Source of the DNA: Parcubacteria group bacterium
GTDB lineage: Bacteria; Patescibacteriota; Minisyncoccia; Phycocordibacterales; Phycocordibacteraceae
Reading direction: 5' to 3'
Assembly (NCBI GenBank): GCA_028286605.1
Contig: JAQBRE010000002.1
Coordinates: 191,720 to 255,719, forward strand
Length of the DNA: 64,000 nucleotides
Shown: positions 4,732 through 64,000 of the stretch, one piece after another
How positions within the stretch are numbered: position 1 is the stretch's first letter
How the letters are laid out: each line of letters starts with the position of its first letter
The notes under the pieces: generated by a model
What the model was told of the DNA's origin: nothing
What the model saw: only the letters and a program-made list of their open reading frames with translations
The model's database searches: none
Made by a program: the position numbers and the translations under genes

Positions 4732-4784
4732 AGGTGCACGTACTGTATCGTGCGGAACGTGGGAAGTAAATGAAAGGCACTATG

Positions 4785-8130: not shown

Positions 8131-8149
8131 TCCGCTATACTGTGCGTAT

Positions 8150-9367: not shown

Positions 9368-9368
9368 T

Positions 9369-9851
9369 TTACGAAGTTATCGTTACCGTCCCGCCGTCAG
9401 ATGCCTGTATATGGTTGTGGAAGGTGAACGTGCCTATCTTGTTGAACGTAAAGCTGTAGACCGTACCTGGATCAACCGCCGTACATTCGTCAAAGCTGCC
9501 ATTATTGTTCGTGCCATTCGTGCAGTGCTGCTGTTCCGTCGTACCATCATATGTGGTGTGCGTAGGATGATTACCTGCAGCGACCCACATTTTGTGCGAA
9601 GAATTGTTTACGAAGCGTACGGTCGTGCCGAGCTTTACGGTGAAGGTAGCAGGTGAGAAGCCTTTATCGGTATACGTTACGACGGTAGGGGTGGCACCGG
9701 TTGAAGAAGCGTTCGTGCTAACAGCCGGAGTAGTGGGTGTTGCTTCCACAGGCATTGGGGCTGCCGCTGAATGGCTAGCGAACAGGAAGTATCCGCCGAC
9801 TCCAAGAATGAGTACTACTATGACGGCGATAATGATGTTGGTATTGGACAT
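9369..9851 (-). CDS. Membrane-anchored secreted protein, possible cupredoxin-like fold
   Basis: Has an N-terminal TM then a Thr/Pro-rich linker. The C-terminal ~100 aa are beta-rich with His/Cys/His/Met candidates: HKMW, HPTH, two Cys, HNH. Confidence 0.45.
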   Translation of the reverse strand: MSNTNIIIAVIVVLILGVGGYFLFASHSAAAPMPVEATPTTPAVSTNASSTGATPTVVTYTDKGFSPATFTVKLGTTVRFVNNSSHKMWVAAGNHPTHTTYDGTTEQQHCTNGTNNNGSFDECTAVDPGTVYSFTFNKIGTFTFHNHIQASDGGTVTITS

Positions 9852-9959
9852 ACGTTTCAGATTAGCTAATGGATATATTCTACAGGGCGTGTCTTTACGT
9901 TCGTTTCAGTGGTCATATGAACAGTATATCCTCTAGAAGTGAGAGGAAGATTAAGACTG

Positions 9960-11927: not shown

Positions 11928-12015
11928 CTGGAATGCGAGAGAGAATCATGATACCGATAAGAGAACCGAGTATGATAAGAAATTGCTTGCGCGTAATTTT
12001 TTTATCCATAAAGTT

Positions 12016-12792
12016 TTAACCTTTGTTTCCTAAAGAGTATACAACTCTCCCCAAGAGGATACTAATCTCAAATATAATCAGAGTAGGAACGAGGAACAGC
12101 GAAAGACTGAAAAGATCAGTCGTAGGAGTGAGTATTGAAAGAACGATGATTGCGGTTATGTAGGATACTGCTCGTTTTTTAGCCAGTATCTTCGGATCGA
12201 GTATGCGTGCGAAGGCCAAGATAACCACGACGCTGGGAATTTGGAAAATAAGCGCCATAAGCACCAACTCCATGAGTACGAAATTTATGTACTGTTCAGC
12301 GGTGAAAAAATTCACCACACCTGGAACATGTATCGAGAGGAGGAAATGAACGCTGAGCGGCAAGAGCAGCAGATACGTATATACGGTCGCAGCAACGGCG
12401 AGTACCGCAGATAATACTAGGAACCAAGCTATGAATGTTGTGCTCCGTTTTCCGAATGCGGGCGCAATGAAACGAAACAGACAGAATAAAATAATCGGCA
12501 ATGCGAGCAAGAACCCGCCGAAGAAATCAATCTTAAATATGAAGAGGAGAGGGTCGAGTGGCGAAAGGAATACGAGTGTCTGTGTGCCTAGCGGTGCGAA
12601 GAGCAACTCAATAACCTGAACGTGGAAGAAATGGGTAGCGCATGCGCCAACGATGAAGGCGCCTAACGCAATGAAGAAATAGGTGCGAAGCTCTAAGAGA
12701 TGCTCCCAGATGCTTCGCGCATCATCATTTTTTCTTTCCATCCTTCGTACCTTCCTCAGAAGAGGTGCTGTCCATTTTGGTACCTTCCTCAA
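12016..12792 (-). CDS. tatC: Twin-arginine translocase subunit TatC (probable start MERKNDD at 12741)
   Basis: Has the HLLELR motif, six TM helices and a TatC-like hydrophobicity pattern. Confidence 0.85.
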   Translation of the reverse strand: MRKVPKWTAPLLRKVRRMERKNDDARSIWEHLLELRTYFFIALGAFIVGACATHFFHVQVIELLFAPLGTQTLVFLSPLDPLLFIFKIDFFGGFLLALPIILFCLFRFIAPAFGKRSTTFIAWFLVLSAVLAVAATVYTYLLLLPLSVHFLLSIHVPGVVNFFTAEQYINFVLMELVLMALIFQIPSVVVILAFARILDPKILAKKRAVSYITAIIVLSILTPTTDLFSLSLFLVPTLIIFEISILLGRVVYSLGNKG

Positions 12793-12925
12793 AACCTTTC
12801 TTCAGGTCATGGAATGAACGGCCGATGCTATTAGCAAGACCAGGTAGTTTTTCTTTACCGAAGAATAAAAGAAGAACGAAAAGGATAAGGAGGAGTTCAG
12901 GAACGCCAAGGCCGAAGATGCTCAT
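12725..12925 (-). CDS. tatA: Twin-arginine translocase subunit TatA/E
   Basis: Reads MSIFGLGVPELLLILFVLLLFFG then an amphipathic helix and an acidic tail. Sits immediately upstream of tatC. Confidence 0.8.
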   Translation of the reverse strand: MSIFGLGVPELLLILFVLLLFFGKEKLPGLANSIGRSFHDLKKGFEEGTKMDSTSSEEGTKDGKKK

Positions 12926-13013
12926 AAGATATTAGATTAAATTGACTCATCTATAGTATCTCCAGTCTTTATTGAAAATGCAATATAGAACGCCGTGCTA
13001 GAATTTCGACTAT

Positions 13014-15041
13014 ATGTGGATGCGCCCCGGAGTAATTGCAGCAGCCATGGCAGCGTTGCTGCCTGCTGCTGTTAAGAACGTTTTGAGTGTCTCTGGCGAT
13101 AGTTGGACGGCAGGTAATGAAGCTAAGCAAAGCCGTCTCGGGCAAGGGGTCTTCACGGAAAGCGATCGTTGGGATTATCAGCTTGCTGCACTGCTAGGCA
13201 TTCCTAATTACACCACCCCCGGCCAGACCGGTGTTAGCTCGGGCGTGATAAATGTTGGATATGGGGGCCAGAGCGCACAAACTATTTATACAAATCTTGA
13301 TGCCATCATCACTGCAGATCCGACACGCATGCAGGATACATGGACGTACTTTGGCGGTCGTAATAATGTGGGTGCTGATACGCAGGTCACCGCTATCACT
13401 GCTCAGCAGACTAATTTCATAAATCGCATCACTCATGATCGAAAGATCATTCTTCCCCCTTCTATGGGTGGAGGCCTGGGTGGTACTCCTGACGACTGGG
13501 TTCGTCAGCATCGCGTACAAATATATGACTGGCGAAATTTTAGAAAATACACCTTCAATCACTTCCGTTACTGGTGGGGAATTAGTCCGCATGGCGGATA
13601 TCCGGGTAATGGTGCGCCTGCTGTTGCGGTAATAGTTGGAAGCATTTCAGGTACCACACTAACGGTTGCAAGTGTCACGTCTGGCGCGCTTGCTATAAAT
13701 CAAGCCTTATTTGGCACTGGAGTCACTGCAGGTACCGTTATTACGGCAGGATCAGGTACGACATGGACCGTAAACCTATTGCAGACTGTTGCTACCGGCA
13801 CAACGATATCAACTACTCTGGATACGCGCGATGTTGGAAACCAGAGTATCCTCACTTCTTTATCTAAGAGCGCTGCGGTAGCGCAGGACCATCCGAACTA
13901 TTGGTCCAGTCCTATTATTGCAGCTGCAATGAAGCCTCTTACCCTCGCTCTATGGAATCTGGATGTTTTTGTCCTCGAACAAAGTATTCCCGATGTTGCC
14001 TACGATATGGGTGCGGGCACGACAATAGAAGTGTATTTCAAGGGATACGTAACATCTTGCTCTATTGCCAGCGATGATCCGGTAAATCCTGGTTTCTTTA
14101 CTATTGCAATGAAGCCGAGCAGTACGGATACGGCACTGCTCACTCGAACGTCTGTGTCAGCAGGGAGTATGATTTCGCCGTTGAATCTCCGTATAACGGC
14201 AAACGGTGTCGATACCGGCGGGAATGCCAAGACTCATACGAATGACGTACGAATTCTGCCGAGCGCAATAGGAGCAAGTTCGACGCTGCCTATCGGTGCA
14301 ACGTTCCCGCGAGATACCGTTAATCCGATACAACGATGGCCACGAATGGAATCAGCAGTATCTCCTTTCACGAATGATTCAAAATTCACCATCGCGATCT
14401 GCTGGAAGCCAGGCGAAGATAATTCGAACATGAATATCTGGGTCAACTCCGGTATCGTTATCAATCGTGCGGTCGGCTCGACAAACAGACTAGCAGTTGT
14501 AATCAGAGATACTGCAGCAAGTAACAGGGTAAACTGGACGAGCGTCAGTACGAATTTCAATATTGCAGGCGGTGAGACTTGGATACTTCTTTCAGTCGAC
14601 CTTGGTGCTGCTACGCCTGTGGCGAATATGTATTCGGTACGTGCTGGCTCAGTGGTGAATATCGCATCCGGCCTGACGCAGCCGACCGTGGGTACTGGAT
14701 TGGTCGGACTGGGAACCAGTACGCCGTTTATGTTCAGTTCGACCGTAGGAGGAGCCTCATCTTTTAAGGGCTCTATAAAATCTGTCTGGGCTGCGCAGGG
14801 AGTCTATTTCGATTTCTCACAGACTTCCAACGTAGACCTTTTCGTTAATCACACGACCGGTGTTCCGACTGACCTTGGCTCTAATGGTTCAACAGGTACA
14901 GGCGTTACTCCGCAGGTCTATTTTCGGGGCACTCCGGGTGACTGGATTACTGGTAAGAATTTTGGTTCAGGCACAGACTGGACTCTGCAGGACAACTGGC
15001 TTTCAGGTGAAGCGCAGTCTTCGCAACCAACTTCATATTAA
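13014..15041 (+). CDS. Large secreted protein with an SGNH/GDSL-like N-terminal region and beta-rich C-terminal region (tail-fibre/receptor-binding-like)
   Basis: Has an N-terminal hydrophobic segment then SVSGDSW (GDS block) and GGRNN (GxND-like block). The rest is Thr/Ser/Gly/Asn-rich beta-type sequence. Confidence 0.5.
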
Positions 15042-15060
15042 TTTGATATAATTTACAGAC

Positions 15061-15444
15061 ATGGCAAATCTACCAACACCAGGCTCAGACAGTGGTACAT
15101 GGGGTAATACGCTCAATACGTATCTTCTCATCGGACATGATGCGTCGGGGAATAATGTTGGCGGCCTGATCGTAGAGGCGACGAAGAGCGGATCGTATAC
15201 GCTCACGACGGCAAACAACAGTCAGCGTATCGTGGCGACATCAGCGATAACCATTACCGTTCCGACGACCGGTACCCTTGGAAACGGTTTCGAATGCGAA
15301 ATCGTAAATGATAGCGGCGGTAGCGTTATCATTGATGGACCTGGTGCTACGAATGTGACCATGGCAGACGGGGAAGTTGCCTGCTTCCTTGAGGTGAATG
15401 GCAAGCAGCGTGTGGTGAAGGGTTCAAGCACCATAATCTCGTAA
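15061..15444 (+). CDS. Small protein with a phage minor-tail/tail-fibre-like N-terminus
   Basis: Its N-terminus MANLPTPGSDSGTWGNTLNTYL resembles the conserved P.PG..D...WG..LN..L opening of actinophage minor tail proteins, recalled from memory. Confidence 0.45.
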   Translation: MANLPTPGSDSGTWGNTLNTYLLIGHDASGNNVGGLIVEATKSGSYTLTTANNSQRIVATSAITITVPTTGTLGNGFECEIVNDSGGSVIIDGPGATNVTMADGEVACFLEVNGKQRVVKGSSTIIS

Positions 15445-15467
15445 TCGAAGCTCGTTTATATGTATGA

Positions 15468-15500
15468 AAACAAGACCGCGTTCGCGGTCTTGTTTCTTAG
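15468..15500. terminator. Bidirectional rho-independent terminator
   Basis: A near-perfect hairpin AAACAAGACCGCG/CGCGGTCTTGTTT is followed by TCTT. Confidence 0.55.
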
Positions 15501-15587
15501 CGGAGACGGAGGGATTCGAACCCTCGAAGGGTTTAACCCCTTACATCGTTAGCAGTGATGCGCCTTCGACCACTCGGCCACGTCTCC
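15501..15587 (-). tRNA. tRNA-Ser (anticodon GCU), long variable arm
   Basis: Has acceptor GGAGACG/CGUCUCC, U8, a 3-bp D-stem, anticodon loop CUGCUAA, a long variable arm UAAGGGGUUAAACCCUUCG, T-arm GAGGG-UUCGAAU-CCCUC and discriminator G. Confidence 0.85.
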
Positions 15588-15603
15588 GTTCAGCTACTAT
15601 ATG

Positions 15604-16221
15604 TCACGTTGCGTATCTATTCAAATGTTTCGGATTGTGGGAGGAAATGACCCTAAAGTAGGCTTTCAAGTCCGCTTTGCTTTCTAGACGAACTCCATTA
15701 CGACTAGAAAATCTTGGACACATCCCAAGTTCTTTAAAGAACGTATATACAGTCTTACGAAGAGGTTCCGATGCACTACTAAAATCAAGCTTCTTATACG
15801 TGTATCGTTTACCTTTGGAAATATATGAATGATCGAATACGCAGCCGTCTGTATCTACCAATCCGCGAATACACGCGATAAGAAATTTAGGATTTTCTTT
15901 AATCCAGCAAGGAATATCAATTTGTGAATGTGTTTTATTTCCTTTAGGTAGTCCTGCGCTATGCAAAAAACGAACTAGTTCAATTCTGGATATTACAAGA
16001 TCATTTACAGACCGGGTAGGTCTTTTTTGAATATGCGGCTCGATAGCAAATAATTTTTGTATGAGATTACTTACGTATCTTGAGTATTCAAGGTCATTTG
16101 TGTGATGAAGACTTATCTTTACTTGATATTTGGATATGTTTCCATCGCCAATCATGATTCCTATGAATTCTGCGAGTTCAATGCTTTTTTCTGGTTGCTG
16201 TATGCGCTTAGTCCAGACCAT
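15604..16221 (-). CDS. LAGLIDADG homing endonuclease, two-motif (205 aa)
   Basis: Has two LAGLIDADG-type motifs, IGIMIGDGNIS and IRGLVDTDGCV. Lies 16 nt upstream of tRNA-Ser on the same strand. Confidence 0.75.
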   Translation of the reverse strand: MVWTKRIQQPEKSIELAEFIGIMIGDGNISKYQVKISLHHTNDLEYSRYVSNLIQKLFAIEPHIQKRPTRSVNDLVISRIELVRFLHSAGLPKGNKTHSQIDIPCWIKENPKFLIACIRGLVDTDGCVFDHSYISKGKRYTYKKLDFSSASEPLRKTVYTFFKELGMCPRFSSRNGVRLESKADLKAYFRVISSHNPKHLNRYAT

Positions 16222-33538: not shown

Positions 33539-34162
33539 ATGGGAACCACTACGGTTACAACGACCGGTCCGGCCGTACATTTCATTAATGTCGAGTATTT
33601 TTTCCGACTCCTGTACGACCTCATCTTCGGCCTGCACATTGGTTCGGTGAACGTCGGCATCGGCAACACATCTGGTCTCGTTACGCTTGCCGGACAGATC
33701 TGGCTTTTCATAAGCGTCATCGCGTGGATCGTCGCGCTCGGTGCATGCTGGGCGCTCGTCTATTACACGACACGGTACTGGCAGTTGCTTGAACAGGAGA
33801 ATGAACGATACACGACTATCTCTGAACCGGAGGCACATGTACAGGTGGAACATTCACGCTGGGCGTACATAAAACAGCTTATCGAGAGTCCGCAGGAAAG
33901 CGATTGGCGCCAGGCGATCATCGAAGCAGATATCATGCTGGACGAAGTGCTTACGCGTTCGGGATATCAGGGCAATACGATTGGCGATAAGCTGAAGACC
34001 GCGAATCCAGATCGCTTCACGACCATTCGCAATGCATGGGACGCGCATACTGTGCGCAATGAAATTGCGCACTCGGGCTCTGCATATCAGCTCACGAACC
34101 ACGCTGCATTCCGCACGATTCAGAATTACGAAGCGGTGTTCCGCCAGTTCAACGAGATTTGA
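33539..34162 (+). CDS. Membrane-anchored protein with a C-terminal HEPN-like domain (tentative)
   Basis: Has two N-terminal TM helices. The C-terminal ~100 aa are helical and contain RNEIAH, which is Rx4H, the HEPN catalytic motif pattern. Confidence 0.5.
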   Translation: MGTTTVTTTGPAVHFINVEYFFRLLYDLIFGLHIGSVNVGIGNTSGLVTLAGQIWLFISVIAWIVALGACWALVYYTTRYWQLLEQENERYTTISEPEAHVQVEHSRWAYIKQLIESPQESDWRQAIIEADIMLDEVLTRSGYQGNTIGDKLKTANPDRFTTIRNAWDAHTVRNEIAHSGSAYQLTNHAAFRTIQNYEAVFRQFNEI

Positions 34163-34827
34163 TTCGGTATTTCAGCAATACTTGCGAGTATTCTTCTTCG
34201 AAGCGAGGTGCTGTTTCGTACTTTTATGCGAATCGTGCCGATATAGGTTTTTGAATCACGATCTACGTTTCCATACCCGCTTATATATGTTGGTTTTGAA
34301 AATTGTTCTCTGGGAATATTTGTCTCTTTAGACCAGAAAGAAGTAATTCTCTCGGTTTCGTCATTGTATAAATTATTAATTGTTATTCGAGCATGAATAT
34401 CTTTTAGTGGAATTTGATAACACATATCGAGCCATTGAATTGCGGTATTTATAATCTTTGGGTCTGAATTCGTAAATCCAAACTCCTGACTTCCTCTTTT
34501 GTATCCTTCACCCCAATACAAACCAATTCCAAGCATAAAAAGATCACGGATTTGTAACATGTCTATATCTTCTTTCCCTTGCTTTGTCTGAGCCAAGATG
34601 TCATGAATTTTTCGAGTCTTGTTTTTCTCAATCCACGGAGCAAGTGCTGCTAGTGACGCAGTGCGATGTCGTTCAGACAAGTACTCCTTCTGCTTAGTCG
34701 TTAGAGAAACGTTTTTACACCATCTACTTACAGTGCTGCTGCTTACTCTTAGGTTGTCGGCAATTTCCTTAATACTCATTCCGCTCGCGCGGAGTTCCAA
34801 AGCCCTCCCATGAAGTTCATTTTTCAT
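34126..34827 (-). CDS. HTH-LAGLIDADG homing endonuclease (single-motif) with N-terminal helix-turn-helix
   Basis: Has the HTH MSIKEIADNLRVSSSTVSRW and the LAGLIDADG-type motif LFMLGIGLYWGEGYK. Divergent from the intron-containing tRNA(CAU). Confidence 0.65.
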   Translation of the reverse strand: MKNELHGRALELRASGMSIKEIADNLRVSSSTVSRWCKNVSLTTKQKEYLSERHRTASLAALAPWIEKNKTRKIHDILAQTKQGKEDIDMLQIRDLFMLGIGLYWGEGYKRGSQEFGFTNSDPKIINTAIQWLDMCYQIPLKDIHARITINNLYNDETERITSFWSKETNIPREQFSKPTYISGYGNVDRDSKTYIGTIRIKVRNSTSLRRRILASIAEIPNQISLNWRNTAS

Positions 34828-34884
34828 ACTTTAATGCTAAGCATATATCGGTAAATATTCTCTATATTTTGAGTGAATATAGCA

Positions 34885-34913
34885 TTGCGTTCTTCATATT
34901 TTCCCTATATAAT
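34885..34913 (+). promoter_or_regulatory. Putative sigma70-like promoter for the tRNA(CAU) precursor
   Basis: TTGCGT, a 17-nt spacer, then TATAAT within TATATAAT, ending 8 nt before the tRNA 5' end. Confidence 0.4.
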
Positions 34914-34921
34914 CGCCGGAT

Positions 34922-35210
34922 AGCGGGGTAGAGGAGAGGTACCTCGGGAGGATTGAATTATAAGGGCGTCCGCAGGAGCAATCATGTGGAAGATCAACTG
35001 CCAAATTCGGTGAAACCCTCACGTCCGAAAGGACGAAAGGCAATGCCGAGCCAAGCCTGTCGAAAGACAGGAAGGTGTAGAGACTAGACGGTAGACACCC
35101 CTCGTGGGTGAAGGCATAGTCCAGACCACAAATTCGTCTTCGGACGAAGCAACGAAAGTTGTAGCGGCAAGCATAACCTCCAGACGCCGGTTCGATTCCG
35201 GCCCCCGCAA
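34922..35210 (+). tRNA. tRNA(CAU) (Met/Ile2-type) interrupted by a group I intron; exons 34922-34953 and 35172-35210
   Basis: Exon 1 reads AGCGGGG-U8-A-GAGG-AGAGGUA-CCUC-G-GGAGG-AU. Exon 2 reads CAUAA-CCUCC-AGAC-GCCGG-UUCGAUU-CCGGC-CCCCGC-A. The spliced anticodon loop is AUCAUAA, with U8, A14, G18G19 and the T-loop conserved. Confidence 0.8.
34954..35171 (+). ncRNA. Group I self-splicing intron (IC3-like) in the tRNA anticodon loop, about 218 nt, no internal ORF
   Basis: The 5' splice site follows U33 and the 3' splice site follows a G. Core segments CCAAAUUCGGUGAAACC, GGCAAUGCCGAGCCAAGC and GAAGGUGUAGAGACUAGACGG match the Azoarcus tRNA-Ile(CAU) intron P4-P7 core as recalled from memory. Confidence 0.8.
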
Positions 35211-54808: not shown

Positions 54809-56596
54809 ATGCACGATCCTAAGAAAAAGACTCGAATAATGCCCGTTTTACGCCTTTATACGAAGGCGGCATTGAAATACCCATGGCTTCTGGTCCTGAT
54901 CGTGGTCGGGGGAGTAATCATCGAAGGAGCGAGCGTCGCGAGTTCGCTCGTCGTACGAAACATCATCAACCTGCTCTCGGAAAATAAGCCGAACGCGGCA
55001 GTGGTAACGATGCTTTTTATCACTCTTGGTTTCTTTGCCCTGACGGCCATAGGCGGGTGGGTCGGGCAGCGCTTGCGCCAGATCGGACTCACGTACATCG
55101 AACCGAAGGCGATGAACGATCTCACCTCTTCTGCGTTCGCGTATATGCTCGGGCACTCGCACGATTTTTTCATATCTAATTTCTCAGGCTCACTCACGCG
55201 TCGCGTGACGCGTTTCGGACGCAGTTTCGAGAACGTTCTTGATAATCTCTCCTTTAACTTCTTCTCGACAGCTGTCTATACGTCGAGTATCCTTGTTATT
55301 CTTTCACTGCGTAATCTTCTTCTCGGCATTATCGTATTTGCGTGGACCGTCCTATTCATCTATATACAAGTCGCAATGGCACGCTGGCGTCAGCCGTTAC
55401 GCGTCGCGCGTGCTGCCGAAGACAGTAACGTTACGGGAGTTCTTTCTGATGCTATTGGAAACTATTCTGCTATCAGCCTGTTTGCTGCTGATACGCACGA
55501 ACGCTCTATATTCGACGGTGCGCTGGAGAAGTGGCGCGTCGCAACACTGAAGTCATGGGTGGCTGATAACTGGATATGGGGCGTGCAAGGCATTTTCGTG
55601 ATGATCATGGAAATCGGCTTGCTTGCGGTGGGTATCCTGCTTTGGGAACGCGGCATCTTTTCAGTAGGTGATTTCGTTCTCATTCAGCTGTATCTTATCG
55701 GTCTTATCGATCGCATCTGGAATATCGGGAATGCGATGCGCCAGCTGTACGATGCATTCGCTGATGCGTATGAGATGGTGGAGATATTCGAGCAACCGCA
55801 TGCGGTTCAGGACGCACCGAATGCAACGGAACTTTCAATTACGGATGGTTCTATCGACCTCGATGACGTCGGATTCCATTTCATCGAAGGACGCGATGTC
55901 TTCAAGAATTTCACGCTCTCCATAAAAGGAGGAGAGAAGATCGCGTTTGTGGGTCCTTCAGGCGCAGGGAAGTCTACGGTTATTCGTTTGCTTCTACGTT
56001 TGTATGACGTAACGGCTGGGTCTGTATGCGTAGACGGAAAAGATATTCGTTCTATCACGCAGGGAAGTTTGCGTCGGGCTATTTCGTTCGTGCCACAGGA
56101 GCCGGTGCTGTTCCATCGCACGCTGCGCGAGAATATCGCGTATGCGAAGCCGGATGCTTCGCTCGAAGAAGTCATCGACGCAGCGAAGAAAGCACACTGC
56201 CATGAGTTCATCGATATGCTTCCTGAAAAGTATGAGACGCTCGTGGGCGAGCGCGGGGTTAAGCTGTCGGGCGGCGAGCGTCAGCGAGTCGCCATAGCGC
56301 GTGCCATCCTTAAGAATGCGCCGATACTTATTCTCGACGAAGCGACCTCAAGCTTGGACTCTGAATCAGAGGCGCTCATCCAGGATGCGCTGCGCATTCT
56401 CATGGAAGGGAAGACAGTCGTGGTTGTTGCGCATCGTCTTTCCACTATCATGCGCATGGATCGCATCATGGTTATCGAAGGCGGCACCATAGTCGCTCAG
56501 GGCACGCACGACGAGCTGCTTAATCACAAGGGTAGCCTGTATCACAAGCTCTGGAGCATCCAGGCAGGTGGGTTTATCGCAGATGTTGAGGAATAG
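54809..56596 (+). CDS. ABC transporter, fused permease/ATPase (MsbA-like exporter)
   Basis: Has six TM helices, Walker A GPSGAGKST, the signature LSGGERQRVAIARA, and Walker B ILILDEATS. Confidence 0.9.
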   Translation: MHDPKKKTRIMPVLRLYTKAALKYPWLLVLIVVGGVIIEGASVASSLVVRNIINLLSENKPNAAVVTMLFITLGFFALTAIGGWVGQRLRQIGLTYIEPKAMNDLTSSAFAYMLGHSHDFFISNFSGSLTRRVTRFGRSFENVLDNLSFNFFSTAVYTSSILVILSLRNLLLGIIVFAWTVLFIYIQVAMARWRQPLRVARAAEDSNVTGVLSDAIGNYSAISLFAADTHERSIFDGALEKWRVATLKSWVADNWIWGVQGIFVMIMEIGLLAVGILLWERGIFSVGDFVLIQLYLIGLIDRIWNIGNAMRQLYDAFADAYEMVEIFEQPHAVQDAPNATELSITDGSIDLDDVGFHFIEGRDVFKNFTLSIKGGEKIAFVGPSGAGKSTVIRLLLRLYDVTAGSVCVDGKDIRSITQGSLRRAISFVPQEPVLFHRTLRENIAYAKPDASLEEVIDAAKKAHCHEFIDMLPEKYETLVGERGVKLSGGERQRVAIARAILKNAPILILDEATSSLDSESEALIQDALRILMEGKTVVVVAHRLSTIMRMDRIMVIEGGTIVAQGTHDELLNHKGSLYHKLWSIQAGGFIADVEE

Positions 56597-56618
56597 GTTA
56601 TAGCAACATGAACATAGT

Positions 56619-56646
56619 CAATAAAGAATCCAAATATTCTTTATTG
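56619..56646. repeat. Perfect 11-bp inverted repeat (hairpin) just after the ABC transporter stop
   Basis: CAATAAAGAAT-ccaaat-ATTCTTTATTG, overlapping a TTGACA hexamer. Confidence 0.35.
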
Positions 56647-56663
56647 ACATAATCTTAATTTTT

Positions 56664-57278
56664 ATGGAGACTGAAAGCGGATTACTACAGGAGATGGTTA
56701 TGAATCCTATTAAAACAGTTCTGCTGCACGGAAAGCCTGGTGCTGGGAAAGGCACTCAAGCAAAATTACTGATTGATGGCTTAGGCTGGCGTTACTGCGG
56801 TACCGGCGATTTTTTTCGAGATCAAGCCAAACACGATAATGAGCTAGGCAGGCGGATACGAATTGCCTACGAGACTGGGACGTTCCTTCCGCAATGGTTA
56901 ATTACGCGCCTTTTTGTGAACGAGACTATGTGTCTTAATCTTTCACAAGGAATTGTTTTTGATGGCTTTGCCCGTACAAGTCTTCAGGCAAGCGAGATTC
57001 ATAGTATTTTATCCTGGTTCGAACGCCCATATCTTGTCATTAATCTTGAAGTGAGTGATTCGATAGCTCTTCAGCGTATTGCTCAGCGAAATTTGATAGA
57101 AGATAGAACAGACGGAGATTCACTAGAAAAATTACAGAAGCGTTTCTCAGTTCATCGAAACCTCAGTGAACCAGCACTTACAATTTTCGAGAATGCCAAT
57201 GGATTAAAACGCATTGATGGCGAGCGTCCAATTGAGGTAGTTCATCAAGACATACTCGATCTGCTTCAATCTTACTGA
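56664..57278 (+). CDS. Adenylate-kinase-family nucleoside monophosphate kinase (divergent, short LID)
   Basis: Has the P-loop GKPGAGKGTQA and NMP-binding GTGDFFRD. Confidence 0.7.
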   Translation: METESGLLQEMVMNPIKTVLLHGKPGAGKGTQAKLLIDGLGWRYCGTGDFFRDQAKHDNELGRRIRIAYETGTFLPQWLITRLFVNETMCLNLSQGIVFDGFARTSLQASEIHSILSWFERPYLVINLEVSDSIALQRIAQRNLIEDRTDGDSLEKLQKRFSVHRNLSEPALTIFENANGLKRIDGERPIEVVHQDILDLLQSY

Positions 57279-57279
57279 G

Positions 57280-57312
57280 CGCCCGCCCTAGTGTGGGCGC
57301 TTTTTGTTATTG
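57280..57312 (+). terminator. Putative rho-independent terminator
   Basis: Hairpin GCGCCC-gccctagtgt-GGGCGC followed by TTTTTG. Confidence 0.5.
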
Positions 57313-57372
57313 ACTTATATATCCGTTAAGTTAGCGTTTGTACGCGTACCATTTCTATGAAATAATTGTTGC

Positions 57373-57990
57373 ATGACCAGCATCTTAGGAAAGGGCTTTG
57401 TTTTACTCACCTCGACAGGTTTTTCCAATACAAAAGTTGCTGATACTTTAATATCAAATCTGACGAATATTCCGCAGAAACGTGCTGCCGTAGTGACAAC
57501 TGCAGCCGAAGACAAAGCTGAGAATCGTTATTCAATCTTAGCCAAAGAGCAACTTGAGGGAATGGGATTTGGCCAAGTTGATTTTCTGGATTTAGAAATA
57601 GACGGTTCAGAAGGTGTTCCGTCTTACGATCTCATCTATGTCTGTGGAGGTAATACCTTCAAGCTTCTCTTTTTCGCTAGATCTACAGATTTCAAAGAAA
57701 AAATACTTGAGGTACTTTCACGCGGAGGTTGTTATGTGGGGGTTAGTGCTGGCAGCCTTATTGCTGGACCTTCAATACAGATAGCGAATGAAGTAGCACC
57801 TGACAAAAACGATGTAAGTTTGAAAGATTTCACTGGTTTATCAATTGTTTCTTCTATAGTTTTTCCACATTATACGGTAGAGCATGAGTTAGAAATAATA
57901 TCCTTTGAATCAAGGAATTCAGTTAAGATTACTCGTCTGACGAATGATCAGGCACTCTTGATTATGCAAGATTCACAAATATTAATATGA
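57373..57990 (+). CDS. Peptidase S51 (PepE/cyanophycinase-like) family protein
   Basis: Has the Ser nucleophile context VGVSAGSLIAG and an S51-like layout. Confidence 0.65.
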   Translation: MTSILGKGFVLLTSTGFSNTKVADTLISNLTNIPQKRAAVVTTAAEDKAENRYSILAKEQLEGMGFGQVDFLDLEIDGSEGVPSYDLIYVCGGNTFKLLFFARSTDFKEKILEVLSRGGCYVGVSAGSLIAGPSIQIANEVAPDKNDVSLKDFTGLSIVSSIVFPHYTVEHELEIISFESRNSVKITRLTNDQALLIMQDSQILI

Positions 57991-58748
57991 TGAAGCATAT
58001 TGTTTTTATAACTGATTGCAGTGATATTGCATACAGCGAACTACGTGGTACAGCATTGAGCGAATTAGCTAAACTAACAGCACAAGACAATATCTCTATT
58101 GAGCCTGTTGTGAGCGTTAAACCATTTTCAATTCTAAATGGAAACTTCGTTCTCCGTCTTATGGCCGAATCGTATCCGGAAGGTACCGTCTTTTCTGTAA
58201 TTCTTAACCCTTCAAAGAATCGTCCAGAACGCCTTTTAGGACGAACTAAGAAAAATAACTTTCTATTTGTCGGCGCTAACACCGGAGTGTTTGAATGGTT
58301 CCTTAGAGATTTTGGTGTCGCCGAACTGTATGAACTTAAGGATCCAGGTTTTCTGCCATTTGGTGGAAAATACGTACATGCTCCCGCTGTGGCTAAATTA
58401 GCTAGCGGTATTCCACCTGCTGAACTCGGAAATCCATTTCAAGTGAGTGGTTTGCGTAAACTAGAAATACTTCCTGGAACTATCGTGCATGTTGATAATT
58501 TTGGACTAATGAAATTTAATACCGTTTTACCGAAATTTGAAGAAGGGGCCCGACTGCGTATAACCGTTAAGGGACTTTCTATCCCGGCTGTGTATTCAAC
58601 ACGAATGATGAATCGAGAAACAGGAGAATGGGTTATCTATCCAGGCAGTTCTCTTGGATTACCGGAGCTAGGGAAAGTTCGTCAAAACGGAGCATTAGAG
58701 CTGGGAGTTGCGGAAGGTGATCAAATTTTCATCGAGATCGAAAAATAA
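57987..58748 (+). CDS. DUF62 / SAM hydroxide adenosyltransferase (fluorinase/chlorinase superfamily)
   Basis: The N-terminus IVFITDCSDIAYSELRG is ITDFG-like. The IVHVDNFGLMKFN region matches the DxFGN motif. Confidence 0.65.
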   Translation: MMKHIVFITDCSDIAYSELRGTALSELAKLTAQDNISIEPVVSVKPFSILNGNFVLRLMAESYPEGTVFSVILNPSKNRPERLLGRTKKNNFLFVGANTGVFEWFLRDFGVAELYELKDPGFLPFGGKYVHAPAVAKLASGIPPAELGNPFQVSGLRKLEILPGTIVHVDNFGLMKFNTVLPKFEEGARLRITVKGLSIPAVYSTRMMNRETGEWVIYPGSSLGLPELGKVRQNGALELGVAEGDQIFIEIEK

Positions 58749-58749
58749 A

Positions 58750-58784
58750 GACCCCTGCGGTGTTGTGCAGGGGTCAGTTTTGTT
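58750..58784. terminator. Bidirectional rho-independent terminator
   Basis: Hairpin GACCCCTGC-ggtgttgt-GCAGGGGTC followed by AGTTTTGTTG. Confidence 0.6.
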
Positions 58785-58792
58785 GCAAGCTC

Positions 58793-59356
58793 TCACGTTG
58801 TGCTCAGGAAAAAGACACTGAAGGGTGGAAGTGCTTGCCGAGCAGCCAGGTAGAAGTACTCAGACCGGATGCCCGCAAGAAATCCATTCAAGCCGAATTT
58901 TTCCATCGCTACGCGAATTACGTGCAGATGCCACAGAAATCCGATTATCTCGGATGATCGGAGATCGTCTATAGTCCCCTTGCTTTTAGGTAACAGTTTC
59001 AGAAACTGGGAAGTACTAAATTTTAAGCTGTACTGTAAGTACTCCCAGTACTCTGATACATCAACGAACGTCGACACTAGATATACTTCATCGAATTGTA
59101 GCTGTGGCAAATTAGTCAGATATTCTTGACTGATTTGCGACTGCTCTTCATCAGTGCGCGAGTACAATATCAAGGGCCAAATATCGTCTACCAATCCCAC
59201 AACTTTGACTTCAGTGATAGCATTTTCACCGATTAGTGATTTTGCTGCTTGTGGATAGGTAGCCAAATAAGGCTTTGGTGCACCACGAGCCCAGACACTG
59301 AAACCTAGGCGTTGTAATGGTACGATTGGTACTGTGTATATCGAGGAGGTAATCAT
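58793..59356 (-). CDS. Hypothetical protein (ORF opens at 59449; likely start MITSSIY)
   Basis: ORF with no recognised motif, convergent with DUF62 and downstream of tyrS. Confidence 0.4.
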   Translation of the reverse strand: MITSSIYTVPIVPLQRLGFSVWARGAPKPYLATYPQAAKSLIGENAITEVKVVGLVDDIWPLILYSRTDEEQSQISQEYLTNLPQLQFDEVYLVSTFVDVSEYWEYLQYSLKFSTSQFLKLLPKSKGTIDDLRSSEIIGFLWHLHVIRVAMEKFGLNGFLAGIRSEYFYLAARQALPPFSVFFLSTT

Positions 59357-59369
59357 GACGATAACCCAC

Positions 59370-60617
59370 TCACAGGATCGAATGGTCGATTTTAAAGAAC
59401 ATACGTCGACCGACACGAACTCGCCATCCACCTTCAGGCACCTGATCATCCTGCTTAATTAGCACGGAATCAGTGACAGATCGAACAGCGTTTTGCTCGA
59501 AAAGGCGCCGTAGTGCTGCCTTGCTTTGGAATTTACCGCTTGCATAGAGCGCAACGAGCGCTGTTGCTCCCGGCTCAACATTTAGTTGAACGTAATCATC
59601 ATCGTGGATAACTTGCTGAGAAAAGAGACGCTCGAAAGTATCGCGTTCCCGCAAGCCATCGTCAGGGTTTTTCGTTTCGAGGCTTGCGACAACGGTTGCA
59701 AGTTGCTTTTTAGCCTCAAACGGGTTCGCCTCAACGAAAATTCTGAGTTCATCAAGCTCACGCTGATGGACATCGGCAAAGCTTAAAAAATATTGGAAAA
59801 TGAGACGATCGGGGATCGACATGATCTTTCCAAATTTATCAGCTTGGCTTGAATTTACCGCGATATAGTTGTTGTAGCTTTTGCTCATCTTTCTGCCATC
59901 ACCACTAGTACCTTCGATGATGGGGGTCATAAGAATGACCTCTTCCTCTAACCCAGCATTCCGCATAATAGTCCGGCACTGCTGGAAATTAAGAAGCTGA
60001 TCTATGCCCCCGACTTCTACGTCGGTTTGCAGATGAAGCGAATCGATTCCCATTAGAACGCCATAGCAAACCTCAGCCAAGGACACTCCTTGTCCTTTTC
60101 TGCCTCGTTCCCGGAAATCCTCCCGCTGGAGGGCCTCTGCGAGGTTTAGTGACTGAAAGATGCCGAAAACATCACTGAGTGACATGGGATTTAGCCACGT
60201 CGTGTTGTGATGAATGGACACTTTTTCGACAGAAAGGTACTTCCCAATCTGGGACACATAAGTCGTCTTGTTTTCCGCGATCTTTTCAGGAGACAGCGGG
60301 ACTCGACCGGTGTCACGCTCAGTCGGATCGCCAACTCGAGCGGTAAAATCACCGATGATAAGGTCGACATGGTTACCGGTTCTCGCAAAAATATTCAACA
60401 CGAGAATTGGCACTACGTGCCCCAAATGAACATCTGTGGCAGTTGGATCAATACCGAATTTGACGCGCAACTTTCGTTGGTCGAGCAAGTGCCGCAAGCG
60501 CTCTTCAGTGATTATCTGTTGACACTTTGGCTGAAGAAAACCGACAATCTCATCAGCTATCATTCCTTCCCAGTTCTCAATGGCCCGGGCAAGGAATTTC
60601 TGGTCAAAACGAATCAT
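59370..60617 (-). CDS. tyrS: Tyrosyl-tRNA synthetase
   Basis: Has class I HIGH (TATDVHLGH), KMSKS, and a C-terminal S4-like domain. Confidence 0.85.
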   Translation of the reverse strand: MIRFDQKFLARAIENWEGMIADEIVGFLQPKCQQIITEERLRHLLDQRKLRVKFGIDPTATDVHLGHVVPILVLNIFARTGNHVDLIIGDFTARVGDPTERDTGRVPLSPEKIAENKTTYVSQIGKYLSVEKVSIHHNTTWLNPMSLSDVFGIFQSLNLAEALQREDFRERGRKGQGVSLAEVCYGVLMGIDSLHLQTDVEVGGIDQLLNFQQCRTIMRNAGLEEEVILMTPIIEGTSGDGRKMSKSYNNYIAVNSSQADKFGKIMSIPDRLIFQYFLSFADVHQRELDELRIFVEANPFEAKKQLATVVASLETKNPDDGLRERDTFERLFSQQVIHDDDYVQLNVEPGATALVALYASGKFQSKAALRRLFEQNAVRSVTDSVLIKQDDQVPEGGWRVRVGRRMFFKIDHSIL

Positions 60618-60840
60618 TTGTTTGCACCTTTCGTGCTGGGTTGCTGGTTAGAAGCCTAATGACTTGTACATACTTCTAAGCACCAGAAAAGCACAAATTA
60701 ACATTTCTGTCAAAATTCACATAATTATTTAATCGTTTGAAATACTAACATTTTCACTTTGTTTTCGTGTCAACTGGCTATATCAGTGTATTTTCATAAG
60801 ACAGCTATTCTTTTAATTTTTCTAGTTTAGAATTAAAGAA

Positions 60841-61008
60841 ATGGCTTGGGATAACTATTTAAAAGCAATGAGTAATAGGAAGTGCCGACTTCTCTTGAAA
60901 GAAACACTTCTGTATGTTTATAAAAGTGACAGATTGCTTGCCTTAGATTTAGACACGGAAGTAAGCTTCTGGAGCATCCAGGCAGGCGGGTTCATCGCGG
61001 ACGAGTAA
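60841..61008 (+). pseudogene. Chimeric gene remnant: methyltransferase N-terminus fragment fused to ABC-transporter C-terminus fragment
   Basis: The 55-aa ORF MAWDNYLKAMSNRKCRLLLKE...ALDLD parallels the N-terminus of the methyltransferase at 62107. Its end VSFWSIQAGGFIADE parallels the last 15 aa of the ABC transporter (LWSIQAGGFIADVEE, nt 56546-56596). Confidence 0.55.
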
Positions 61009-61017
61009 AATAATCCT

Positions 61018-61494
61018 ATGCCAAAGAAATACACGGATGAGGAATACCAGCGAATCCTGCCTAGAAAGCAGGTCGGTACAGCAGTGTTGTTCTTCAATAC
61101 AAAAGGCGAGCTACTTATCGTCAAACCAGATTATAAGGATAACTGGCTCGTGCCAGGCGGTTCTGCTGATGAGAACGAGTCTCCGTTAGAGTGTGCAATT
61201 CGAGAAACAAAAGAGGAGATCGGATTTGAGTTTCAAGAACTTCCATTAATCGGCATCTACTATGTGCATGCGAAAGGATCGCATGCAGACCATATAAAGT
61301 TTCTCTTTCACGGAGGAGTGCTGAGTGACGTTCAGATTTCCTCGATCGTCTTGCAAGCAGACGAACTCGAAGAATTTACATTCCTTTCAGTACAGGATGC
61401 GTTGCCGCTTTTATCCGGAAGCTTGCAAGCAAGTATTCCGATGTCTCTGGACGCATTTCAAAACAAAAGGATCGGATATAAGGAAGCGAATTAA
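61018..61494 (+). CDS. NUDIX hydrolase
   Basis: Has the Nudix box GGSADENESPLECAIRETKEEIG. Confidence 0.8.
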   Translation: MPKKYTDEEYQRILPRKQVGTAVLFFNTKGELLIVKPDYKDNWLVPGGSADENESPLECAIRETKEEIGFEFQELPLIGIYYVHAKGSHADHIKFLFHGGVLSDVQISSIVLQADELEEFTFLSVQDALPLLSGSLQASIPMSLDAFQNKRIGYKEAN

Positions 61495-61499
61495 TCCTT

Positions 61500-62096
61500 A
61501 TGGATACGAGCAATGCAGCTTTTTTCATCATTCCTGGATTTAAGGATCAAGTGAAGGATACTCAATACAAGTGGCTCGTTTCACACCTTAAAGACAAAGG
61601 CGTAACTGTTATGCAGACTCCTGTGGAATGGAATAATAAGACGCTATCGCAAAACGCTGCTGAATTCGTAACGTATTTCAACACCAATCAGAAAAAGGAA
61701 AATTACATACTTGGTTTTTCACTCGGGGCAGTACTAGCTCTCATGACCGCAAACCTGCTGCTTCCCAAGAAGATATTCCTTTGCTCGCTGAGCGCGGTCT
61801 TTGCTGAAGACCTGAAAGCCATTGATGCATCTTTTGCGGATTATGCAGGAAAGAGACGACAAGCAGACTTCGCGACTCTAAACGGAAGAATGCTTGCAAA
61901 GAATCTTAAGGTACCGGCAGTCGTATTCTATGGCGAGAAAGAAATAGAGGAATTTCCTAAGCTAAAGAATAGGTGCGAGGAAACAGTACGTCTCGCGAAA
62001 GATGCAAAGCTGGTTATGGTGAAAGATGCACCGCACCAGATAGATTTCCTTGCATACAAAGAGGCAATTAAAAAAGTTCTAAATGGAATAGTTTAG
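61500..62096 (+). CDS. Alpha/beta-hydrolase fold protein
   Basis: Has the nucleophile elbow GFSLG and a C-terminal His context DAPHQ. Confidence 0.65.
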   Translation: MDTSNAAFFIIPGFKDQVKDTQYKWLVSHLKDKGVTVMQTPVEWNNKTLSQNAAEFVTYFNTNQKKENYILGFSLGAVLALMTANLLLPKKIFLCSLSAVFAEDLKAIDASFADYAGKRRQADFATLNGRMLAKNLKVPAVVFYGEKEIEEFPKLKNRCEETVRLAKDAKLVMVKDAPHQIDFLAYKEAIKKVLNGIV

Positions 62097-62106
62097 AATC
62101 AAATGA

Positions 62107-62676
62107 ATGTCTTGGGATGATTACCTAAAAGCAACGAGCAATAGTAAGTGTCGACCTCTTCTTAGAGAGGCTTTTCAGTATCTTAAAAAGACTGACAGAG
62201 GAAATGCTTTAGATTTGGGAGCTGGGGCACTGGGAGACACCAGCTTCCTTTTGAAGGCAGGATTTACGGTGATCGCCGTAGACAGTAATCCTAAAATTCT
62301 GGAATACTCCAAACCGCATGAGAATCTCTCAGTGGAGATTAGTTCCTTTGAGAACTATTCTTTTCCTGAGAATTCATTTGATTTAATAAATGCTCAGTAT
62401 GCTTTGCCTTTCAATAAGCCAGAAACATTCGAATCAGTTTTTCAAAAGATGATTCTTTCCATGAAAGACAGCGCTATTTTTACGGGTCAGCTATTCGGTA
62501 CCGAAGACGGGTGGGCAGAGAAGAAAACTATGACATTCCTTTCTGCAGAGCAAGTAAATAAATTAATGGAGAACTTTAAGAAAGTACACGTTTTACGTGA
62601 AGAAAAGAAATTAGGTCCTACGGCAACAGGAATAGACAAGTTTTGGCACGTATTTCATATAATTGCAGAGAAATAG
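62107..62676 (+). CDS. Class I SAM-dependent methyltransferase
   Basis: Has motif I ALDLGAGALGDTS and motif II-like VIAVDSN. Confidence 0.75.
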   Translation: MSWDDYLKATSNSKCRPLLREAFQYLKKTDRGNALDLGAGALGDTSFLLKAGFTVIAVDSNPKILEYSKPHENLSVEISSFENYSFPENSFDLINAQYALPFNKPETFESVFQKMILSMKDSAIFTGQLFGTEDGWAEKKTMTFLSAEQVNKLMENFKKVHVLREEKKLGPTATGIDKFWHVFHIIAEK

Positions 62677-62760
62677 TTATTTTGTGAAGAATACTTTCAT
62701 CAGTTGTGCGAATGACACATTTTACAAAACAGGCTGGCAAGTACGTTATTATTAGGAGGT

Positions 62761-63774
62761 ATGATTCCTCTCGACAGGAACGAGAACTATTGGCTCCTTG
62801 ATGACGAGCTCTTATCTGCGTGCAAACAATACGGAACAGATGCACTGGCTACCTATCCGCACTATGACCAGTTGCGATCGGCACTCGCTTCATATGCAGG
62901 CGTTGATGCGTCCTCAATCATTCTTACTCCTGGTTCCGATGCGGCCATTCAAGAATTAGCGCGTGCGTACGCTGGGGGAGGGAAGAAAGCTCTTTTACCT
63001 GTGCCGACCTTCTATGGATATGAATCAGTACTAGAACGCGTGGGCGCTCATGTCATTCCCGTAGCCTATGGTGAAGAGGAGGGAGTTTTTCGTTTCCCGA
63101 TAGAGGAGACATGCCGACTGCTTACGGCCGAACGTCCTGACGTCTTGTTCCTGTGCAATCCGAACAATCCGCTCGGATCCCCGATCCCCGATGCCGATCT
63201 TGAACGTTTACGCGTCGCCACGCTGGAATCAGAAACCTTGCTAGTAGTGGATGAAGCCTATTACGAATATTCGGGACGAACGCTCATTGATACTTTTAAT
63301 GATTCTCCGAATTTGGTGATACTGCGCACCATGTCCAAAGGGTTCGGTATACCGGGCGCACGCATTGGTTATTGCATCGCGCACGCCGAGGTAAAAGAGA
63401 TATTAGGGAAGCTCATGCTTCCGTGGCCCGTCGCTCATACGAGCGTGTTTGCTGCACTTGCACTACTCGAGCGTGTTGCTGCTGTATCAGCGCGGCGCGA
63501 AGAGACTATTCGCGAGCGAGAACATTTCAGCGATGAACTAAAGAAGCTGCCAGGATTTGTCGTGCATCCATCCGAGACGAACTTCTTACTTATACATGTC
63601 GATGATGCCGCTCAAATTGCTGCGAAGCTGGCTTCGCATGGGGTGGCAGTCGCAACCGGCGACTGGATGAGTCGCTATCCCGAAGCAAAGAAACTCCTTG
63701 ATTCCACATTGCGTATCGCCACCCCCTCGCCAACCGATAGGGAGCAGGTACTTGACATATTACGTAATATATAG
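62761..63774 (+). CDS. PLP-dependent aminotransferase, class I/II (HisC/CobD-like)
   Basis: Has the PLP-lysine context MSKGFGIPGARIGY and NPNNPLG. Confidence 0.8.
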   Translation: MIPLDRNENYWLLDDELLSACKQYGTDALATYPHYDQLRSALASYAGVDASSIILTPGSDAAIQELARAYAGGGKKALLPVPTFYGYESVLERVGAHVIPVAYGEEEGVFRFPIEETCRLLTAERPDVLFLCNPNNPLGSPIPDADLERLRVATLESETLLVVDEAYYEYSGRTLIDTFNDSPNLVILRTMSKGFGIPGARIGYCIAHAEVKEILGKLMLPWPVAHTSVFAALALLERVAAVSARREETIREREHFSDELKKLPGFVVHPSETNFLLIHVDDAAQIAAKLASHGVAVATGDWMSRYPEAKKLLDSTLRIATPSPTDREQVLDILRNI

Positions 63775-63786
63775 TATGTTATTCGA

Positions 63787-64000
63787 CATGAATACAGAAC
63801 CCGAAGAGAGCGTCTCAGAACCAAGCGCATCAGCGCGCCTTTTCAGCTTCACTCCGTTCGCCTCTGCGACAGTGCTTGAACGATTCCGTAAAATAAAGAG
63901 CGCTCGCTGGGGCGCCCTACAAGCGGAAACTCTCTTGAAACTTTTTACGCGTGCAGCAAAGCATGTGCCTGCGTATACCCGCTTCCTGAAGGAAGCGGGT
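63787..64000 (+). CDS. 5' part of an ORF running off the window (possibly an adenylate-forming/phenylacetate-CoA-ligase-like enzyme; weak)
   Basis: Open frame from the ATG at 63787 to the window end. Its N-terminal sequence ...KHVPAYTRFL is the only hint to function. Confidence 0.35.

Follow-up and report, generated by a model that had tools for sequence, protein, structure and literature searches.

Flexible genomic islets, such as capsule or O-antigen-type cassette loci, are replaced via homologous recombination in their flanks. The process of homology-facilitated illegitimate recombination (HFIR) has been established in the naturally transformable bacteria Acinetobacter baylyi, Streptococcus pneumoniae, and Pseudomonas stutzeri (PMC3240628; references cited in PMC5361080), and it was put forward to account for displaced 3' gene ends in Vibrio type VI secretion system (T6SS) and Rhs arrays (PMC5361080). 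The present analysis concerns a 64,000-nt stretch of DNA, referred to as the window, whose source genome belongs to the Patescibacteria (Paceibacteria, "Parcubacteria group"). Between an ABC transporter gene and a methyltransferase (MT) gene, the window carries a 55-codon open reading frame (ORF), called here the scar ORF or the fragment, in which the start of an MT gene is fused to the end of an ABC gene.

The locus resembles HFIR in that incoming DNA appears to be anchored in a homologous gene at one end and joined non-homologously, with little or no microhomology, at the other, so that foreign genes are added beside the anchor. It differs from the described HFIR cases in being known from sequence only, in an uncultivated Paceibacteria genome. 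In addition, the illegitimate partner site here would lie in the other conserved flank of the same locus, so that the product has the look of a tandem duplication without the loss of anything essential. As in the orphaned 3' ends of Vibrio cholerae T6SS and of Rhs and contact-dependent inhibition (CDI) systems (PMC5361080), a conserved 5' body seems to gain a new 3' end with its cargo, while the previous 3' end is displaced downstream together with its genes, and truncated remnants are left in direct orientation. Unlike those systems, the locus has no toxin or immunity genes, its cargo is metabolic or housekeeping-like (TyrS, nucleoside monophosphate (NMP) kinase, peptidase, NUDIX), and it has one displaced end, which is fused to a remnant of the right-hand flank gene.

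The locus shares with flexible islets the conserved flanks around low-GC (guanine plus cytosine) strain-specific cargo, with alleles about 10% divergent within flanks that are 98-100% identical. In contrast to such islets, the slot is small (0.1-6.4 kb) and functionally heterogeneous, and two alleles appear to be stacked and not swapped. Integrative islands at the 3' ends of genes or tRNAs also have a direct repeat of the gene end flanking extra DNA, with the target intact; here, however, no integrase is present, the repeats do not match perfectly, and a piece of the adjacent MT gene forms the end of the extra DNA. Events of this kind are already known and amount to ordinary genome plasticity, not a new system. 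The locus would be a well-resolved natural example of homology-anchored illegitimate recombination in Patescibacteria, which are uncultivated, have tiny genomes, and in which gene flow is mostly inferred. A small slot between two conserved genes seems to turn over even within a species, and the remnants left there may be readable as a record of past events.

The scar ORF and its parent genes

From ABC to MT, the gene order is ADK-like kinase, S51 peptidase, DUF62, hypothetical protein (minus strand), tyrS (minus strand), the scar ORF, NUDIX, and a putative alpha/beta hydrolase. The five genes from the ADK-like kinase to tyrS are referred to as cargo set 1, and the NUDIX and hydrolase genes as cargo set 2. 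The features at the junction and its parents are the following.

54809..56596, plus strand: ABC transporter gene, 595 aa, conserved left frame of the cargo slot (Pfam ABC_membrane and ABC_tran)
56546..56583, plus strand: left copy of the repeated ABC 3' end, within the working gene
60796..60840, plus strand: MT-family 5' flank apparently travelling with the fragment (conserved TAGTTTAGAAT motif and -10-like TAGAAT; from alignment)
60841..60952, plus strand: MT 5' piece of the scar ORF, codons 1-37, MAWDNYLKAMSNRKCRLLLKETLLYVYKSDRLLALDL, cut ahead of the GxGxG motif that binds S-adenosylmethionine (SAM)
60953..60969, plus strand: junction interval holding the breakpoint (GACACGGAAGTAAGCTTC region)
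60970..61008, plus strand: probable displaced ancestral-type ABC 3' end (WSIQAGGFIADE, then stop), GC 0.62
61018..61494, plus strand: NUDIX hydrolase, 158 aa, cargo set 2 gene 1 (Pfam)
62107..62676, plus strand: resident class I SAM-dependent methyltransferase (MT), 189 aa, conserved right frame of the slot (Pfam Methyltransf_25/31/11)

The MT copy at 60823-60950 aligns with 62089-62216 over 128 nt without gaps at 74% identity (blastn E = 6e-17). It covers 18 nt 5' of the ATG plus codons 1-37, and 23 of the 37 residues are identical at the protein level (tblastn 1e-10). The ABC copy matches at 31 of 34 positions (56550-56583 against 60968-61001), and none of 100 dinucleotide shuffles of the window produced a second match. 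The first-pass annotation had reported a copy of about 40 MT codons directly in front of a copy of the ABC end; both similarities lie far above chance, and the extent given for the MT copy was right. The single indel that it had placed in the ABC repeat is not required, as the copies align in frame from TGG (60970 and 56552). Within the stretch coding for WSIQAGGFIAD, the ABC copies show four differences, all of them synonymous third-position changes with no non-synonymous one, and the L/F difference falls at the junction itself. The homology of the window ABC gene to the ends of the fragment and of two related loci, L061 and L060, ceases right after the Asp codon, where the window ABC gene reads GTT GAG GAA TAG and the other three read GAG TAA.

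The scar ORF is one open frame (60841-61008, 55 aa) whose stop lies 9 nt ahead of the NUDIX start, and its ABC part represents the last 13 codons of the ABC gene (60970-61008). Both pieces lie on the plus strand in the order MT 5' piece (60823-60952), then ABC 3' piece (60970-61008), which is a novel junction of the tandem-duplication type. An inversion as the origin was ruled out, since both pieces are in direct orientation. An alignment of the junction interval to MT codons 44-47 (DTSF) is possible if 18 nt are deleted and 6 nt inserted, though it is not significant (shuffle p = 0.58); if this alignment is taken, the join comes after AGCTTC where ABC reads AAGCTC, an imperfect microhomology of 2-5 nt. 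The join connects MT codon ~37-47 in frame to the ABC codon 13 from the end, two unrelated genes that share at most 2-5 nt there (AGCT / TC).

The scar ORF retains 37 of 189 MT codons, ending before GxGxG, and 13 of 595 ABC codons, and has no Pfam match. Within a collection of about 15 billion proteins it stands alone as a singleton, and the related loci yielded no chimeric homologue, their matches being only to genuine MT starts and genuine ABC ends. Both the NCBI annotation and Logan contig L001 have a gene call at this position. The 55-codon ORF represents a junction remnant of its parent genes without conservation as a gene of its own, which agrees with the illegitimate recombination scar that the first-pass annotation had listed as its alternative. 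It may still be transcribed and translated, as an MT-type 5' flank is kept and its stop lies close to NUDIX. A promoter scan gave a sigma-70-like site at 60698-60725; such sites are not enriched over shuffles.

The origin of the ABC piece is indicated by related loci. L061 is conspecific with the window genome: HisC and four genes 3' of it (523-aa protein, nitroreductase-like protein, ThiF, histidine kinase) are 99.4-100% identical at the amino-acid level, and ABC is 98.9% identical. It aligns with the window in three segments.

L061 1-1569: window 55015-56583, 96.0% identity
L061 1532-2057: window 60963-61495, 89.5% identity
L061 2211-3598: window 62613-64000, 99.35% identity

Window 56584-60962 is missing from L061, which runs from ABC straight into NUDIX, and L060 (ABC 87% identical at the amino-acid level) is without that DNA too. 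In both loci NUDIX follows ABC directly with a spacer of 3-5 nt (in L060 the NUDIX start lies 5 nt past the ABC stop), and both ABC proteins end in LWSIQAGGFIADE before the stop. The end peptide of the fragment and its GCG GAC GAG TAA are identical to those of L061 and of a further locus, L064, and the CCTATG context of the NUDIX start is common to the fragment and L061. NUDIX of the window is 94% identical at the amino-acid level to that of L061, 76% to that of L060, and 73% to that of L035. Because the fragment ends like ABC of L060 and L061 and likewise runs into NUDIX, 60970-61008 can be regarded as the displaced original-type ABC 3' end; together with NUDIX it is apparently an intact ABC-NUDIX junction of the ancestral type, called here R, and not a copy from which five genes were removed exactly at gene boundaries. 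The present end of the window ABC protein (...LWSIQAGGFIADVEE, then stop; ...FIADVEE) apparently belongs with the cargo from ADK to TyrS, called here the D type.

Between the MT piece and the resident MT, 31 of 111 positions are different, with a Nei-Gojobori synonymous distance (dS) of 1.16, a non-synonymous distance (dN) of 0.24, and a ratio (omega) of 0.20. True MT orthologue pairs have an omega of 0.22-0.28 over the same codons. In a simulation, an omega that low had P = 0.058 under neutral decay of one copy (expected about 0.56) and P = 0.80 with both lineages functional over most of their divergence. The upstream flank of the fragment (-45 to -19, 27 nt) agrees with that of MT orthologues (16/27 in L031, p = 0.005; 19/27 in L062, p < 0.0002), whereas it agrees with the region upstream of the resident MT at 9/27 (p = 0.82), where the hydrolase gene abuts the MT start. 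Since the flank matches the orthologues and not the resident gene, the resident hydrolase-MT junction was probably not the template of the fragment. In appearance the MT piece is an orthologue that has diverged, contributed by a different MT allele bearing the usual 5' flank of the family, and not a decayed local copy. The substitutions T10M, P17L, and A22T fall at sites invariant among the nine closest homologues, which indicates some relaxed constraint or decay after the event.

Proposed event and competing explanations

It is proposed, with a probability of roughly 0.68, that a single illegitimate recombination, anchored by homology, between two versions of the slot with different cargo gave rise to the scar. 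The ABC-MT interval would be a strain-variable low-GC cargo slot in this Paceibacteria clade. Its R version would read ABC (...FIADE), NUDIX, hydrolase, MT, and its presumed D version would read ABC (...FIADVEE), ADK-like, S51, DUF62, hypothetical, TyrS, MT. If the two versions met in one cell, one flank would recombine homologously, and the other end would be joined illegitimately by fusing D-version MT codon ~37-47 in frame to the R-version ABC codon 13 from the end; ordinary allelic replacement would take both conserved flanks. The mechanism would be HFIR after DNA uptake, which equals an unequal crossover between diverged alleles. The product would carry both cargo sets in tandem, with the flanking ABC and MT genes intact and the 55-codon MT-5'/ABC-3' chimera between the sets, and the MT-type 5' flank of the fragment may now help to express NUDIX, hydrolase, and MT.

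The event could have run in either direction. D cargo may have entered an R genome with the anchor in ABC, or R cargo may have entered a D genome through an anchor in MT or HisC. Some weight is added to the latter option by L037 (GCA_034680565.1), a distant relative that links set 1 genes with the cluster downstream of HisC. At 4500-14400 it carries TyrS (65%), the hypothetical protein (50%), DUF62 (64%), a PPDK-like gene, and S51 (52%) as a block. This block adjoins homologues of the cluster 3' of HisC in the window genome (523-aa protein, ThiF, nitroreductase-like protein, histidine kinase), which points to an old linkage of set 1 with that cluster.

Several points weigh against the proposed event. 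The linkage in L037 means that cargo set 1 may be native and NUDIX-hydrolase-MT incoming. A D-type arrangement was found in no genome; the contexts of P0006 and P0007, the MT homologues nearest to the fragment, and of the ABC homologues P0214 and P0215 hold other cargo. All five set 1 proteins are singletons on clustering at 90% identity, and the nearest TyrS outside the genome is 65% identical. The homologous crossover of the event itself was not located, and a sharp divergence boundary at 56251 may belong to an event in L061. Microhomology at the junction is weak, and the DTSF alignment (shuffle p of 0.58) is not significant. The selection tests cover 37 and 12 codons and are marginal (P ~0.06; ~0.03-0.09 by hand calculation). 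Natural competence is documented for another Patescibacteria lineage, the Saccharibacteria (PMC10633639), and would be an assumption for Paceibacteria.

The first-pass annotation had favoured an intragenomic tandem duplication spanning the ABC 3' end through the MT 5' end, after which genes would have been reciprocally lost or replaced in the copies. The junction topology on which it was based stands, as an MT start followed by an ABC end is formally the tandem-duplication order. In L037, TyrS, the hypothetical protein, DUF62, and S51 lie beside NUDIX, so all of these genes could once have been neighbours, and N12, K28, D30, and R31 of the fragment are shared with the resident MT only. The later divergence of the copies in content, however, does not fit the evidence well. 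Three events at the least would be required, with deletions falling exactly at gene boundaries. The fragment runs into NUDIX through the same tight ABC-NUDIX junction as in L060 and L061, its upstream flank is of the orthologue type and not that of the resident hydrolase-MT junction, and its MT piece has an omega of 0.20 where about 0.56 would be expected (P = 0.058). The ABC piece has four synonymous changes and no amino-acid change. The two cargo sets share no residual similarity: between the left and right intervals (56597-60822 and 61009-62088), no further repeat and no DNA or protein similarity was found. Tandem duplication is considered unlikely, and it is retained because the tests that oppose it rest on short sequences.

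It is also conceivable, though quite improbable, that the 55-codon ORF functions as a small gene, perhaps as a leader whose translation is coupled to that of NUDIX; such a role could go with any origin of the junction. An intact ATG, 55 codons free of stops in AT-rich DNA, the MT-type 5' flank with its -10-like TAGAAT, the stop 9 nt before NUDIX, and the gene calls in the NCBI annotation and in L001 all fit such a role. They are opposed by the singleton status of the ORF among about 15 billion proteins with no chimeric homologue in related loci, by the loss of every catalytic motif of both parents, and by the changes at conserved MT positions.

Site-specific integration of a genomic islet into the ABC 3' end, in which direct repeats of about 39 nt would serve as attL and attR and the gene end would be rebuilt by the element, is very improbable. 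The locus has the classic look of such an insertion, with direct repeats of a gene 3' end bracketing a 4.4-kb segment absent in the conspecific strain and with the target gene intact. However, no integrase or recombinase lies in or adjoining the segment, and its hypothetical protein is a conserved neighbour of TyrS in L037. The repeats are about 90% identical and fully explained as two orthologous ABC 3' ends. The segment ends in the MT 5' piece with its own flank, which argues for an origin from a homologous ABC...MT locus and not from a discrete element, and its cargo is housekeeping-like. In line with this, no integrase, transposase, or tRNA was found in or at the block (Pfam, NCBIfam, and PHROGs for the genes), and no relatives of TyrS or DUF62 were found in viral contigs.

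An assembly chimera of contigs from two co-occurring strains is scarcely credible. Related organisms do occur in the same sample, and L036, from the same run as L001, has a 71%-identical MT, but the MT/ABC join shares at most 2-5 nt, far under the k-mer of any assembler, and the two ABC ends have no exact match longer than 19 nt. The same structure stands in the 532-kb contig of the NCBI metagenome-assembled genome, where the proteins are MDB5265594-MDB5265603, and in Logan contig L001; both may stem from the same reads.

Cargo genes and the conserved frame in relatives

The cargo genes and the block that encloses them are listed below.

56664..57278, plus strand: ADK-like NMP kinase, 204 aa, cargo set 1 gene 1 (Pfam ADK 1.9e-26)
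57373..57990, plus strand: peptidase family S51, 205 aa, cargo set 1 gene 2 (Pfam 4e-26)
57987..58748, plus strand: SAM hydroxide adenosyltransferase-like protein (DUF62), 253 aa, cargo set 1 gene 3 (Pfam SAM_HAT_N/C)
58793..59356, minus strand: hypothetical protein, 187 aa as called, cargo set 1 gene 4 (ORF could reach 59449)
59370..60617, minus strand: tyrosyl-tRNA synthetase, 415 aa, cargo set 1 gene 5 (TIGR00234 220 bits against a cut-off of 113.8)
61500..62096, plus strand: putative alpha/beta hydrolase, 198 aa, cargo set 2 gene 2 (weak Pfam matches only)
56597..62750, no strand: low-GC cargo block, GC 0.425

The labels come from Pfam and NCBIfam (ABC, ADK-like, S51, SAM_HAT/DUF62, TyrS, NUDIX, alpha/beta hydrolase, class I MTase) and agree with the gene identities that had been read from the sequence at first pass, weakly so for the hydrolase. 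The ADK-like kinase matches NCBIfam adk models, all under the model cut-offs, and its gene is absent in L061 and L060. The hypothetical protein has zero matches in Pfam, NCBIfam, and PHROG and shows no recombinase sign. For the hydrolase, no NCBIfam or PHROG match was found, and the gene is in none of the relative loci compared. Terminator-like hairpins lie at 57277-57302 after the ADK-like gene and, as a strong bidirectional one (10 bp, 7 GC), at 58750-58775 between the convergent DUF62 and hypothetical genes.

A windowed profile gave a GC content of 0.425 for 56597-62750 against 0.518 in the remaining window, where every other 6.15-kb stretch has at least 0.484. The first-pass impression of lower GC in the enclosed DNA was therefore correct, whereas its end at 62220, in a block drawn from 56546, was too early: the low GC extends to about 62750 and takes in the whole MT gene. 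Within the block, the ABC piece of the fragment forms a small GC-rich patch (0.62). The equivalent ABC-MT interval also has a low GC content in L035, L060, and L062, so low GC is a property of the slot and not a sign of recent import peculiar to the window genome. Other 1-kb stretches of the window with a GC of 0.42-0.45 (background about 0.52) lie at 34001-35000, 12001-13000, and 15001-16000, and could be further variable cargo slots.

ABC orthologues in Paceibacteria are 56-87% identical and have the same histidine kinase and response regulator upstream. MT orthologues are 70-81% identical, and those at 71-73% sit 3' of the same frame of histidine kinase, response regulator, and ABC. Scans with the ABC protein gave relatives of at most 71% identity in genomes and at most 65% in metagenomes; L060 and L061 came via a protein search and a NUDIX cluster member. 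The frame of histidine kinase, response regulator (minus strand), and ABC, followed by variable low-GC cargo and MT, is kept in L031, L032, L035, L062, and L067, with different cargo in each. The cargo between ABC and MT was recorded for four of these loci.

L035 (ABC 73%, MT 71%): CYTH-like gene, NUDIX (73% to that of the window), two unrelated genes
L062 (ABC 77%): TrpS, DXS, 554-aa protein, S51 peptidase, 88-aa protein
L031 and L067 (MT 73% and 71%): one small gene

In L035, one additional gene separates ABC and NUDIX. L064 (ABC 76%) has different genes 3' of ABC and no MT within 10 kb. In L031 (4739-6538) and L032 (1487-3286), the frame ABC is a paralogue 33% identical to the window ABC, while the histidine kinase (70%), response regulator (88%), and MT (73%) are orthologous; the frame gene itself was therefore replaced there. 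Mobile elements occur in related genomes, with two IS200/IS605-type Y1 transposase genes by the MT homologue in L066 (941-1618, 4284-4961) and a reverse-transcriptase gene at L060:16-999; none lies in the slot of the window.

A second scar and tyrS at the slot

In L061 (2058-2274), MT is reduced to its last 64 nt, which are 100% identical to window 62613-62676 and preceded by 150 nt without a match in any fetched locus. This remnant is apparently a second, independent illegitimate-recombination scar at the same slot. The divergence between L061 and the window is 2.3% (dS 0.086) through 56250 and 10.5% (dS 0.54, omega 0.02) from 56251, and it is 10.5% (dS 0.46, omega 0.06) across NUDIX. Beyond the cargo, the two are identical over 62613-62960 and then differ by about 0.9% overall. 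The L061 allele looks like another import, anchored in ABC with the switch at 56251 and joined illegitimately inside MT. Because L061 would have had its own event at this locus, the 56251 boundary cannot be used to place the crossover of the window. That L061 arose from a window-like allele through exact excision between its two ABC repeats was ruled out, as the shared parts are 10.5% divergent against about 1-2% in the flanks.

The second scar fits the slot as a recombination hotspot. On a wider and rather doubtful reading, Paceibacteria could have in the ABC-MT interval a hotspot dedicated to cassette exchange, where HFIR repeatedly stacks or swaps cargo and through which a tyrS that is essential and of a foreign subtype may have come into strain-variable DNA. 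If so, the window would catch the xenologous displacement of an aminoacyl-tRNA synthetase at one moment, and its sequence would attest directly to transformation-type recombination in uncultivated bacteria of the candidate phyla radiation (CPR).

The window tyrS (59370-60617; TIGR00234 220 bits) lies on the strand opposite to ABC, in DNA that the conspecific L061 lacks at this position. It is of a different subtype from the TyrS found after ABC in other Paceibacteria and is 24% identical to tyrS of L019. In several more distant Paceibacteria, a tyrS lies directly 3' of ABC on the same strand; its identity as tyrS was confirmed for L019:11766-13061 (348 bits), and L006, L007, L009, L011, and L013 appear alike. 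The presence of a tyrosyl-tRNA synthetase in DNA missing at this position in a conspecific strain raises a question of its own.

Three further observations concern the surroundings of the slot and the rest of the window. Between L001 and L061, mismatches 3' of window position 64000 fall in short clusters (window-equivalent 64201-64300, 64396-64645, and 65002-65038) with long identical stretches between them, a mosaic that suggests frequent homologous recombination in this population. A tRNA-Ile with the anticodon TAT lies at 3821-3895; such a tRNA is uncommon in bacteria, which as a rule read AUA with a CAT tRNA carrying lysidine. A transfer-messenger RNA gene at 515-934 (minus strand) has a long predicted tag peptide, ANKTVASAKSLVSPFFTKNDFAFAYATA.

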